Part shown: in pieces, positions 16,609 through 19,276 of the stretch
Position numbering within the stretch: position 1 is the first letter of the stretch
Layout: each line of letters begins with the position of its first letter
Sequence record: PQ568402.1
Reading direction: 5' to 3' (one strand)
Origin: Acinetobacter phage PhabP_R1
DNA: 48,117 nucleotides
Made by a program: the position numbers and the translations under genes
The notes under the pieces: generated by a model
Told to the model about the DNA's origin: nothing
Seen by the model: the letters and a program-made list of their open reading frames with translations, nothing else
Databases searched by the model: none

Positions 16609-16830
16609 ATGGAATTGGATAACGCAAAACTACCAATCAATCAGATTATTGCTCGCATCAATGATGCTGCGAAACATGGTGAAGCTTTGGTGCTAACAGC
16701 CGAAGAAGTAAAGATTCTTTCTAAAGATATTGGCGACAAAGTCTTTATTCCTGTGCTTACTAATGAGCAGGTCGTGCAGTTGGTAAAAGAAGGAAAGCTA
16801 GGCCAGAAAATTAATAACACAAAAGATTAA
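16609..16830 (+). CDS. hypothetical small protein (73 aa) co-transcribed with cI
   Basis: Strong RBS AAGGAG. Lies between cI and the restriction-modification gene. Confidence 0.45.
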   Translation: MELDNAKLPINQIIARINDAAKHGEALVLTAEEVKILSKDIGDKVFIPVLTNEQVVQLVKEGKLGQKINNTKD

Positions 16831-16962
16831 TAAACTGTGAACCCGACACAGTCTTTTAAATGTGGGGTATATCACTTATTAGATAGTAATATTTATTGAT
16901 GTTTTAGTGTGTAATGTGTAGATTGCCAATAGTTTTTATAGTAGATATTGGGATTATGCAAT

Positions 16963-19230
16963 ATGTCTAATATTGAGCAAGATACACGTTTTATTGTTAA
17001 CAATAATTTGATTAACAAGGGCTGGATCTTGGACATTCAAGATCCAAACAAAAATGTCTTTTTTGAATCAGATATCTTAAGAATTGTTAATAATGAGTTT
17101 CTCAAGAAAAGTAAAAAAAGACCCGATTATGTTCTTTTCGATTCACAAAATAAGCGGCCAATCGGTGTAATTGAAACGAAATCAGGTGGAAAAAGCTTAA
17201 CAAAAGCACTGGATCAGGCAACCGAATATGCTGAAATGCTTGATGCACCTTTGATATTTGCAATGAATAATGGTTTCTGCGAAACACGGCATTTGTATAC
17301 CCAAAAACCATTATTTATTGATGAAAATGAGGTTAATGAATTAATAAGAGTAAATGAAGCTAAAGAGTTCATATTGCAGGAAACAAATGGTATTTATATT
17401 ACACCTAAAGAAATTTTAGTCTCTCGCAAAGAGTTAATTAATGTTTTCAAGAAGTTAAATAACTCACTAAGAGGTGAAGGTTTAAGAGCTGGTATAGAAA
17501 GGCTTTCAGAATTTGCAAACATTCTTTTTTTAAAATTGTATACAGAGAATGCTAATACAGGTATTTGGAATTCTCTCAAAAGTCTCGATAATGATTTGCT
17601 AATTAATACAACTAATAACATACTACAAGATATTGATAGACAATATGGTGCTTCTGTTTTTACAAATTTACAGCTAACCAACCCTGTTGCTGTTAAAGAG
17701 ATGATCAAAGAGTTGGATAAGTTAAAACTCTCATCAATAGATACCGATATTAAAGGAGATGCTTTTGAGTATTTCTTACAGCAAGCTACAGCAACTAATA
17801 ATGACTTAGGAGAATATTTTACTCCACGTCACATAACTAAAACCATTGTTAACTTAGTCAACCCTAAATATGGTGAAAAGATCTATGACCCTTTTTGTGG
17901 GACAGGTGGTTTTTTAACAGAGGCATTTGATCATATAAAAGATAACACTTTAATTGCAAACAATAGTAGTGAAGAAATCAAGCTTAAACATAATACTATT
18001 TTTGGAAGAGAAATTACCTCAAATGCAAAACTCGCAAAAATGAATATGATTCTGCATGGGGATGGGCATAGTGGAATTTGCCAGATAGACACACTTCAAA
18101 ACCCTATTGAATCTGAATATGATGTGGTTATAACCAACATGCCATTTTCTCAAAAAACTTCTTATTCTCACTTATATGAGAATAAGTTAGCTAAAAACGA
18201 TGGTGATGGAGTATGTGTTCTACATTGCTTTAAAGCAACAAAAAAAGGAGGGCGAATGGCATTAGTAGTACCTGAAGGCTTTCTTTTTAAAGCCGCTTTA
18301 GCTCCAGTAAGGAAGTATTTATTTGAAAACGCCCAACTAAAAGCAGTAGTTTCACTTCCAAAAGAAGTTTTTCTGCCATATGCAAAAGTTAAAACCAATA
18401 TACTCTACTTTACCAACTGTCATAATGGTAGAACAAATTCTGACGTTTTTTACTACAATGTGACAAATGATGGCCTAAGTTTAGATTCTTTCCGTAGAAA
18501 AATTGACGAAAATGATTTAAAAAATTTAGATTTTGCTGATTTAAATAAGAGCGACTTTGATAAATATTATAATGAATTAGGTTTCTTAAAAGTTAATCCA
18601 GAATTAATCAGAAGCAATGATTATATTTATAATTATGCTCACTATAGTAATTCACATATAAAATCAAAATTCCCAACTATAAAACTAAAAGAACTCCTAT
18701 CCTTGTCTGGCAAAGTCAAAGTGGGAGAGGATACAAATATACCTATTATGAGTATCACTATGGAACATGGCTTAATTGATCAGCATGAGAAATTTAAAAA
18801 ACGAGTCGCAAGTTCTGATATTTCTGGGTATAAAAAGGTTTTTAAAAATGAACTTGTAATGGGGTTCCCTATAGATGAAGGTGTTCTAGGATTTCAAAAA
18901 TATTACGATGCTGCTGCCGTAAGCCCAGCATACAAAATCTTTAGATTAAAACGAGAAGTTAATGTAGAATATTTGGATTTGATTTTGAGATCTAATTCTC
19001 TAAGAAAAATATACAAAAGTAAAATGCAAGGCAGTGTAGAGAGACGACGCAGTATTCCTGATGAAATGTTTTTGAATATTGAGATCCCGAATCCTCCTGA
19101 AGAGGTTAAAGATCAAATAGTAAAACAACATAAACTAATAAAGGAAATTGAGAATAGTCTCAAGGAAAATCAAAAAAAATTGCGTCTAAAGACAGAAGCA
19201 TTATGGGAACTTCCTCAAAATTACAACTAA
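16963..19230 (+). CDS. single-chain restriction-modification enzyme (Type IIG / MmeI-like): PD-(D/E)xK nuclease + gamma-class N6-adenine methyltransferase + specificity domain
   Basis: RPDYVLFD...IGVIETK is a PD...ExK motif. LRGEG...ILFLKLYTE resembles the HsdM N-terminus. Motif I is DPFCGTGGFL and motif IV is NMPF. The C-terminal domain is HsdS-like. The gene is AT-rich. Confidence 0.7.
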   Translation: MSNIEQDTRFIVNNNLINKGWILDIQDPNKNVFFESDILRIVNNEFLKKSKKRPDYVLFDSQNKRPIGVIETKSGGKSLTKALDQATEYAEMLDAPLIFAMNNGFCETRHLYTQKPLFIDENEVNELIRVNEAKEFILQETNGIYITPKEILVSRKELINVFKKLNNSLRGEGLRAGIERLSEFANILFLKLYTENANTGIWNSLKSLDNDLLINTTNNILQDIDRQYGASVFTNLQLTNPVAVKEMIKELDKLKLSSIDTDIKGDAFEYFLQQATATNNDLGEYFTPRHITKTIVNLVNPKYGEKIYDPFCGTGGFLTEAFDHIKDNTLIANNSSEEIKLKHNTIFGREITSNAKLAKMNMILHGDGHSGICQIDTLQNPIESEYDVVITNMPFSQKTSYSHLYENKLAKNDGDGVCVLHCFKATKKGGRMALVVPEGFLFKAALAPVRKYLFENAQLKAVVSLPKEVFLPYAKVKTNILYFTNCHNGRTNSDVFYYNVTNDGLSLDSFRRKIDENDLKNLDFADLNKSDFDKYYNELGFLKVNPELIRSNDYIYNYAHYSNSHIKSKFPTIKLKELLSLSGKVKVGEDTNIPIMSITMEHGLIDQHEKFKKRVASSDISGYKKVFKNELVMGFPIDEGVLGFQKYYDAAAVSPAYKIFRLKREVNVEYLDLILRSNSLRKIYKSKMQGSVERRRSIPDEMFLNIEIPNPPEEVKDQIVKQHKLIKEIENSLKENQKKLRLKTEALWELPQNYN

Positions 19231-19244
19231 TCCCCCCTTCGAAC

Positions 19245-19276
19245 CCACCACCCCGTGTGGGTTTTCTTTTGTCTAT
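19245..19276 (+). terminator. intrinsic terminator after the restriction-modification gene
   Basis: GAACCCAC-CACCCCGT-GTGGGTT followed by TTCTTTTGT. Confidence 0.5.

Follow-up and report, generated by a model that had tools for sequence, protein, structure and literature searches.

Immediately beyond the cI repressor unit of Acinetobacter phage PhabP_R1 (PQ568402.1), a gene at 16963-19230 probably encodes a self-contained, bifunctional restriction-modification (RM) enzyme of Type IIG (IIC), which forms an exchangeable cargo within the immunity region of this temperate phage. Positions refer to the window, that is, the whole stretch of 48,117 nt that was analysed, and gene calls were made using PHROG, Pfam, NCBIfam and PADLOC profiles. 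Judged by its anatomy, the 755 amino acid (aa) protein is very likely a single-chain Type IIG/IIC RM enzyme with the domain plan of HaeIV. An N-terminal nuclease and a gamma-class N6-methyladenine (m6A) methylase are united in one polypeptide, followed by a C-terminal specificity module evident from a match to Specificity_I, matches to HsdS profiles and swapping of the target recognition domain (TRD). As in HaeIV-like Type IIB enzymes, each chain has one TRD, and two chains would be needed for a bipartite site.

Domain organisation of the enzyme

The gene and the three parts of its product are as follows.

16963-19230, + strand: RM enzyme gene, 755 aa, from an ATG start
16963-17397, + strand: nuclease domain (aa 1-145), PD-(D/E)xK, of the Type I HsdR N-terminal type
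17410-18537, + strand: HsdM-like helical N-domain and gamma-class N6-adenine methyltransferase (aa 150-525), N6_Mtase
18673-19197, + strand: one HsdS-like TRD (aa 571-712) and a long C-terminal helix (aa 713-745), equal to half an HsdS

The longest open reading frame (ORF) begins at TTG 16948; the ATG at 16963 was preferred because it fits the N-termini of homologues, in which E5 is invariant.

The initial annotation of this DNA had recognised a PD-(D/E)xK motif, RPDYVLFD...IGVIETK, near the N-terminus, and this was borne out by Pfam HSDR_N, which matched aa 18-91 with 32.8 bits (cut-off 25.1). The NCBIfam model of EcoAI-family HsdR matched aa 7-108 with 45.5 bits, and the domain was aligned with the HsdR structure 3h1t across the D...ExK...QxxxY motifs. 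With RPDYVLFD at aa 53 and IGVIETK at aa 67, the arrangement is D55-X15-E71-x-K73, followed by Q85xxxY89. The same annotation had described the D/ExK spacing as MmeI-like, which does not hold: the nuclease, with PD-X15-ExK, is HsdR/BpuSI-like, this spacing being the one reported for BpuSI, a Type IIG enzyme (PMC3185434), and no match to an MmeI N-terminal model was obtained.

The proposed N6-adenine methyltransferase core with an HsdM-like N-terminal part was recovered clearly. Pfam N6_Mtase matched aa 261-564 (E=4.7e-54) and PADLOC MTase_I the same protein at E=5.9e-76; matches to the HsdM subunits of StySJI and EcoKI ranged from E=1e-29 to 6e-35, with alignments beginning at HsdM residues 5-19. 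The methylase motifs follow in the order FTPRH (286-290), DPFCGTGG (309-316; DPFCGTGGF at aa 309) and NMPF (aa 392). This X-I-IV order, with the TRD at the C-terminus, places the methylase in the gamma class.

The C-terminal part, previously put forward as an HsdS-like specificity domain, matched PADLOC Specificity_I at aa 572-740 (E=7.9e-27). The family profile aligned with residues 17-198 of 1yf2, the HsdS of M. jannaschii (E=1e-12), a segment that comprises one TRD and the central helix, and also with the EcoKI S subunit and S.BsaXI. A sequence search of the PDB with the TRD alone gave no direct match, the HsdS structures being reached through the family profile only. That profile matches solved HsdR (3h1t), HsdM (2okc, EcoKI) and HsdS chains in order along one polypeptide. 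Three independent libraries of profiles and the PDB thus concur in a chain of three modules. An AlphaFold2 (AF2) model with a mean predicted local distance difference test (pLDDT) score of 80 has the expected five-part layout, in which a beta-rich domain is followed by a helix of 33 residues (713-745). The nearest solved folds found by Foldseek were HsdM, the M-S fusion 7eew, BsaXI (Type IIB), BpuSI (Type IIG) and DrdV. No helicase or translocase domain was found in the enzyme or in the neighbouring genes. The motifs of the enzyme occur far above chance expectation.

Conservation and exchange of specificity

Conservation was assessed in 117 aligned homologues, whose identity, depending on the region, is 35-76%. 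The nuclease residues D55, E71, K73, Q85 and Y89 are invariant in all 117, across many phyla, and FTPRH and methylase motifs I and IV are essentially invariant; in motif IV the N, P and F are fixed and position 2 is occupied by M, I, F or Y across the family. The TRD behaves differently from the catalytic body. Relatives whose bodies are 60-73% identical have TRDs that are just 19-33% identical, whereas others with bodies of 35-53% identity have TRDs that are 62-66% identical. As judged from these alignments, the TRD has been exchanged separately from the catalytic body, which is a signature of RM specificity exchange. The retention of catalytic residues in the 117 homologues, together with the mosaicism of the TRD, suggests that both activities are under selection. 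Longer relatives of 940-990 aa also exist, and presumably carry a second TRD.

Classification and comparison with known systems

A label of Type IIG/IIL had been proposed. The first half of it stands, in that the enzyme is a single chain of Type IIG (IIC); the IIL half fails, as MmeI models are not matched to threshold and the TRD, like the nuclease, is of the Type I kind. With 16.5 bits, MmeI_Mtase stayed below its cut-off of 27, and the MmeI N-terminal, helical, TRD and C-domain models were absent from the matches at E<=0.1; an MmeI/Type IIL assignment was rejected. Among the hidden Markov model (HMM) searches suggested in the initial annotation as a check on its reading, that with N6_Mtase was positive, those with MmeI models remained below cut-off and that with Methylase_S produced no direct match. 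A Type I system was likewise rejected, as the match to HsdR covers its first ~100 residues (the nuclease), with no SF2 (superfamily 2) translocase and no separate subunits.

By domain plan the enzyme is best likened to HaeIV of Haemophilus aegyptius, which has a nuclease, a gamma-methylase and a single specificity domain in one chain and no separate M or S subunit. With one TRD in its single chain, HaeIV works as a homodimer on GAY N5 RTC, which it cleaves to either side (PMC4081073, PMC3874165). It is chromosomal, whereas the phage enzyme is prophage cargo.

Other Type IIB enzymes (BcgI/BsaXI and AloI/TstI/CjeI) have in common with the phage enzyme HsdS-like TRDs and the fusion of a PD-ExK nuclease, at the N-terminus, with an HsdM-like gamma methylase. 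RM.BsaXI and S.BsaXI were both detected by profile and fold, the sequence match to RM.BsaXI being limited to aa 382-484 (E=8e-12). BcgI and BsaXI are two-subunit enzymes with a separate S subunit, and AloI, TstI and CjeI are single chains of about 1250 aa with two fused TRDs, in contrast to the one TRD and one helix of the 755 aa phage enzyme.

All three modules are homologous to parts of Type I systems such as EcoKI and EcoR124I, namely the HsdR nuclease, HsdM and HsdS. The phage enzyme differs in being encoded by one gene and not three, and in being without the SF2 translocase/ATPase motor; ATP-driven translocation and distant random cleavage are therefore not expected of it. The engineered half-S protein EcoR124I-NT is a useful comparison within this group: this half HsdS dimerises via a conserved helix and reads the symmetric sequence GAAN7TTC (PMC2877798). 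The best solved chain over methylase, TRD and helix is the 'intact MTase' of Vibrio vulnificus YJ016 (7eew), in which profile positions 229-745 align with chain residues 108-624 (E=9e-45). It has the same body, a fusion of M with half an S, but not the N-terminal nuclease domain. The MmeI family resembles the phage enzyme in being a lone single-chain RM protein with an N-terminal nuclease, a gamma methylase and a C-terminal TRD, and differs in that the phage nuclease and TRD are Type I-like.

Compact RM systems have been described in other temperate phages. Those of mycobacteriophage Panchino, a single-subunit restriction system, and of Staphylococcus aureus phage phi42, the BcgI-like Sau42I, protect the lysogen from other phages (PMC7542560, PMC6532042), and the Panchino restriction gene is part of a variable region that is expressed in lysogeny (PMC7542560). 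The methylase core is in common with Panchino, with 31% identity over aa 227-481. These systems belong to other hosts, their homology is distant and Sau42I has two subunits.

Organisation of the immunity region and the cargo slot

The features surrounding the gene are listed below.

15498-15728, - strand: cro-like regulator, divergent from cI; 76 aa ORF; phrog_35 transcriptional repressor, E=9e-10
15729-15852: OR-like operator/promoter region with palindromic sites 15791-15801 and 15835-15845
15853-16599, + strand: cI-type repressor, 248 aa, with helix-turn-helix (HTH) and Peptidase_S24 domains; Peptidase_S24 E=1.3e-21, HTH_3 E=1.1e-6
16609-16830, + strand: small companion gene, 73 aa ORF; 71 aa from TTG 16615 in other phage records
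16834-16852, + strand: weak hairpin closing the cI/small-gene unit, left cargo border; 6-bp stem, folding free energy (dG) -6.0 kcal/mol, short T tract
16857-16962, + strand: leader specific to the RM cargo, 105 nt, GC 0.26
19241-19275, + strand: intrinsic terminator, right cargo border; 8-bp GC-rich stem at 19241-19264, dG -10.7 kcal/mol, U-rich tail
19276-19360: OL-like operator region with sites 19312-19321 and 19347-19356, preceding the early-left (recombination) operon

The earlier description of a 73 aa ORF and a 755 aa ORF following a cI-like repressor on the same strand, and of a terminator after the larger gene, agrees with these coordinates, and the S24 and HTH domains establish the nature of the repressor, which also matches phrog_4 transcriptional repressor (E=7e-42). 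The cro-like gene is annotated as Cro in phage TRS1, whose immunity region is 98% identical. The longest cI ORF begins upstream at 15796, the start used in the record of phage 5W (267 aa). Translation probably begins at 15853 (248 aa), since the 5' extension, 15796-15852, would overlap both OR operator sites and the 98% identical gene of TRS1 is annotated as 747 nt. The two ORFs beyond cI are separated by a gap of 132 nt. The large gene is AT-rich, as had been remarked, with a GC content of 0.316 (0.239 at third codon positions, GC3), whereas cI has 0.404 and the window as a whole 0.392; a composition of this kind is typical of acquired cargo.

Sites of the form ACCWWWGGTT occur four times in 48 kb, solely at 15791-15801, 15835-15845, 19312-19321 and 19347-19356. 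They yield 6 strand-matches where 0.77 were expected, a number reached in none of 100 shuffles. In addition, a repeat of 49 nt at 15732-15780 recurs at 19276-19324. The four palindromic ACC-WWW-GGTT sites are probably the operators of the repressor, predicted as OR and OL. The + strand genes past OL include a Sak4-like annealase and a single-stranded DNA binding protein (SSB), in keeping with an early-left recombination operon. The order is therefore OR, cI, small gene, hairpin, cargo, terminator and OL/PL.

Comparison with related phages delimits the cargo. Ab105-2phi and TCUAN1, which have no RM gene, match the window through the small gene and the hairpin as far as 16851-16856, and their own cargo genes begin 25-35 nt past the hairpin. 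TRS1, of the same immunity type, carries a lipoprotein as cargo; its match to the window resumes at 19248, inside the terminator (annotated as such in TRS1), and runs through OL. RM phages of other immunity types match from 16616 to 19283-19287 at 99.6-99.8% identity, and the leader, 16857-16962, is present only in phages that carry the RM gene. As the junctions against phages with other cargo fall at 16852-16857 and 19247-19248, the cargo extends over about 16857-19247.

The slot had been compared with that of rexAB in lambda, a comparison that the layout upholds: the gene is bracketed by two operator clusters, it shares its terminator with the alternative cargo of TRS1, and a Proteus homologue stands exactly between cI and N. 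Like rexAB, it lies after cI on the strand of that gene, between OR and OL, in a block that is closed by a terminator, differs in content among related phages and is likely expressed in the lysogen. RexA and RexB constitute an abortive-infection system, without similarity in sequence or mechanism to an RM enzyme.

The same slot is occupied by other genes in loci of related Acinetobacter phages and prophages (positions are those of each locus).

L100:2766-4162: 333 aa protein and 130 aa membrane protein
L101:2889-3158: 89 aa lipoprotein
L102:2773-3720: 315 aa protein
L015:4963-6115: 247 and 138 aa proteins
L010:4719-5397: 62 and 149 aa proteins
L013:4898-5338: 146 aa protein
L012:4800-5342: 180 aa protein

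None of these alternative cargo genes had a Pfam match above cut-off or a PADLOC match; they are candidates for functions expressed in lysogeny.

The small gene downstream of cI

A partner role in restriction-modification had been suggested for the small protein, and the distribution of its gene contradicts this. Of its 87 homologues, all but one are named Acinetobacter, and in every Acinetobacter prophage examined the gene lies directly after the S24 repressor, whatever the cargo. It is followed by unrelated genes, with no RM gene, in three diverged lineages (P0162, P0177 and P0169) and in phages Ab105-2phi, TRS1 and TCUAN1, and the homologues of the enzyme in Proteus, Yersinia and Rahnella stand without it. 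The protein is modelled as three helices (pLDDT 76), for which no fold match was found, nor any Pfam, NCBIfam or PADLOC family or HTH; its PHROG family, phrog_2719, is listed as of unknown function. A role as RM partner or controller protein was rejected, as each gene occurs without the other and the protein has no HTH, family or fold match. By synteny, the small gene is part of the cI unit and not of the RM cargo.

More speculatively, the slot between the cI unit and the terminator might be a defence hotspot of temperate Acinetobacter phages coupled to the repressor maintenance promoter (PRM). The RM enzyme would be its sole recognisable occupant, the other cargos would perhaps be new anti-phage systems, and the 71 aa protein would perhaps take part in the lysogeny switch or regulate the expression of the cargo. 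We advance this as a tentative suggestion.

Distribution and current annotation

The region 15400-19700 (4.3 kb) is 100% identical to Acinetobacter phage 5W (MT349887), the record of which measures 43,032 bp, compared with 48,117 bp for the window. The enzyme occurs at >=99.7% identity in at least 33 Acinetobacter phage records (JX403940, MT349887, PQ382036, OR180312 and PQ432283 are examples), where it follows at least four different repressor genes; the cluster at 90% identity to which it belongs has 847 member sequences. The copy in B1251 is labelled 'putative restriction-modification protein' in GenBank; other labels are 'N-6 DNA methylase', 'type I restriction enzyme M protein', 'Type I RM DNA-methyltransferase subunit M' and 'hypothetical protein', and the PHROG family, phrog_2713, is listed as of unknown function. 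No experimental characterisation of the enzyme was found in the literature searched. Papers on Vieuvirus do not discuss the RM gene, and a study of the A. baumannii methylome concerns another RM cluster (RGATCY), leaving prophages unmentioned (PMC10287943). A cytosine methyltransferase reported for 5W (PMC8878043) was not located among the ORFs scanned.

The wider family comprised 3207 matches at E<=1e-10 among the candidates scored, from many bacterial phyla and some archaea, and at least 577 relatives lie in species-representative genomes (577 of 600 among the pattern-matching stretches listed). Homologues in Enterobacterales are 68-69% identical and have the same TRD as the phage enzyme. 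That of Proteus terrae (L007:6001-8256, 68% identical) is situated between the S24 repressor/cI and the N gene (N_peptide) of a lambdoid prophage, with SieB and Kil downstream. The homologue in Yersinia enterocolitica (L004:6001-8253, 69% identical) follows a 102 aa XRE-type gene in an islet with two serine recombinases, and that of Rahnella sp. (L020:4001-6253) stands alone, beside ABC-transporter genes and a tail-fibre-like remnant. DNA similarity to the Proteus and Yersinia homologues begins at the ORF, the RM leader not being in common.

Among 80 genome loci of distant chromosomal relatives in other species (L020-L099), 15 share an upstream ORF family, a winged-helix (MarR/Crp-like) gene of ~90 aa that is directly upstream in the example checked (L070), and 29 share an ORF family without a Pfam match (median about 260 aa; 454 aa in L045), downstream in the example checked. 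In those lineages the two families may act as regulator and partner; the phage has neither of them.

Proposed mode of action and alternative explanations

The enzyme has no partner gene, as no neighbour recurs beside it in the phages, and it would be made together with or alongside the repressor in the lysogen. Two chains would pair via their C-terminal helices, as half-HsdS proteins do, and the sequence read by the two identical TRDs would then be symmetric and bipartite. In the DNA of host and prophage, both half-sites would receive m6A from the methylase domains. Incoming DNA that is unmethylated at such sites would be cleaved close by, at a constant distance and probably to either side, in the manner of HaeIV and other enzymes of Type IIB. 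The lysogen would thereby resist unrelated phages and foreign DNA, and progeny of the carrier phage would emerge methylated.

Several observations weigh against this account. Pfam Methylase_S has no direct match to this copy, and the TRD was assigned from PADLOC, the family profile and the model. Within the immunity region, the weak hairpin and the private 105-nt AT-rich leader separate the RM gene from cI, and a scan for the sigma-70 consensus on the + strand of 16600-16962 found no site with >=9/12 matches. In none of the 80 genome loci of other species was an S24 repressor present within 4 kb, and the prophage slot is therefore a trait of few lineages and not of the family. A comparative survey, moreover, includes 5W with the Acinetobacter phages that have genes for adenine-specific methyltransferases, and treats phage methyltransferases as a means of counter-defence (PMC8878043).

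With regard to expression, read-through from cI is likely, since the hairpin is weak and the start positions of the sister cargo genes leave no room for a promoter. The alternative is a private promoter in the 105-nt leader, by which the gene would be expressed constitutively or during the lytic cycle, outside the PRM/cI transcript; this is possible, if doubtful. It would be in keeping with the position of the hairpin, inherited from the cI/small-gene unit, ahead of the RM gene, with a leader that travels with that gene and with the small HTH regulators that relatives elsewhere have upstream. It is opposed by the outcome of the sigma-70 scan, by the low stability and short T tract of the hairpin, by the read-through that the closely placed sister genes imply and by the single strong terminator that closes the whole block. 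The best promoter discerned by eye in the leader (TTGATG-17-TAGATT near 16897-16925) has 8/12 matches and was not counted as evidence.

Provided that the enzyme is active, we favour, with some reservation, a homodimeric mode in which each half-site is methylated at an adenine and sites lacking methylation are excised, because of the precedents of EcoR124I-NT and HaeIV. The main alternative is the mode of MmeI and Eco57I, in which a monomer (or transient dimer) recognises a site that is continuous and asymmetric, with methylation of a single strand and cleavage to one side. Most of the single-chain Type IIG enzymes that have been characterised and possess a single specificity domain act in that mode (PMC4081073, PMC3874165), and the single TRD per chain and the presence of DrdV and BpuSI among the fold matches are compatible with it. 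The TRD and its trailing helix are nevertheless HsdS-like (1yf2 17-198, EcoKI S, S.BsaXI) and not MmeI-like, half-HsdS modules dimerise through this helix (PMC2877798) and the closest solved M+S chain is the Type I-type fusion 7eew, so that monomeric action is considered unlikely.

Less likely again is a protein that acts as a methylase only, its nuclease being vestigial or regulatory and its methylation serving to guard the phage genome (counter-defence) or in an epigenetic role. This is how most records would have it, through the labels 'N-6 DNA methylase' and 'type I restriction enzyme M protein', and it accords with the survey that includes 5W (PMC8878043) and with the methylase being the strongest HMM signal. 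The invariance of D55, E71, K73, Q85 and Y89 in 117 of 117 homologues is, on the other hand, unexpected of a decaying domain, and a slot on the lysogeny side, not among early lytic genes, suits a function in the lysogen.

A bifunctional enzyme could also serve mainly to stabilise the prophage through post-segregational killing, and not to exclude other phages. RM systems on mobile elements can serve as addiction modules, and many prophages retain the gene with an identity of >=99.7%. With nuclease and methylase on one chain, however, both activities would dilute out together, which weakens classic post-segregational killing and makes this an improbable main role. Finally, membership of a multi-gene system (Type I with separate HsdR, MADS or BREX) is effectively refuted by the gene neighbourhood: Mad2 and PglX were each rejected, as the partial matches to Mad2 (PADLOC 1.3e-47; NCBIfam 119 bits, cut-off 720) and PglX (NCBIfam 35 bits, cut-off 500) are far under their cut-offs and reflect the shared methylase fold only, and the flanks are the cI/small gene and the terminator/OL, with no mad, brx or hsdR genes nearby.

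Other features of the window

No Rfam match at E<=1 was obtained for known RNA elements in 15300-19800, and no sign of phase variation was found, the runs present being A7-A8 and T7, with longer repeats absent. No tRNA genes were found in the window.

Outside the immunity region, an ORF of 216 aa without a Pfam match occupies a very AT-rich segment at 7772-8422 on the - strand (GC about 0.28). It is just downstream of a Q-like antiterminator gene at 8618-9118 (Phage_antitermQ, 22.9 bits against a cut-off of 26), a position that is another classic moron site of lambdoid phages. A 132 aa ORF with a DUF559 domain (9115-9513, - strand) lies within the early-right operon. A further segment of low GC, 24204-26575, contains an integrase (24204-25223, - strand) and a DUF4760 protein (26054-26575, + strand) beside an endolysin gene (26744-27286), and is probably a cargo region proximal to the phage attachment site (attP).

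Significance

The enzyme represents a real but familiar kind of phage-borne defence enzyme, as RM systems of prophages and defence cargo adjacent to repressors are already well established. Conceptually little is added, and the value of the finding lies in annotation, in a cleanly bounded cargo slot and in the host range of phages used for therapy against A. baumannii. Acinetobacter baumannii, a priority pathogen with multidrug resistance, is among the targets of phage therapy; if active, the enzyme would have a bearing on which of the phages used in therapy can plate on lysogens, on how the DNA of those lysogens is methylated and on their uptake of foreign DNA. Defence surveys and predictions of host range may miss it, because it is labelled as a methylase subunit, as a Type I M protein or as hypothetical, and its PHROG family as of unknown function. 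The modular map of the region further draws attention to uncharacterised cargo genes as candidates in a screen for defence functions.

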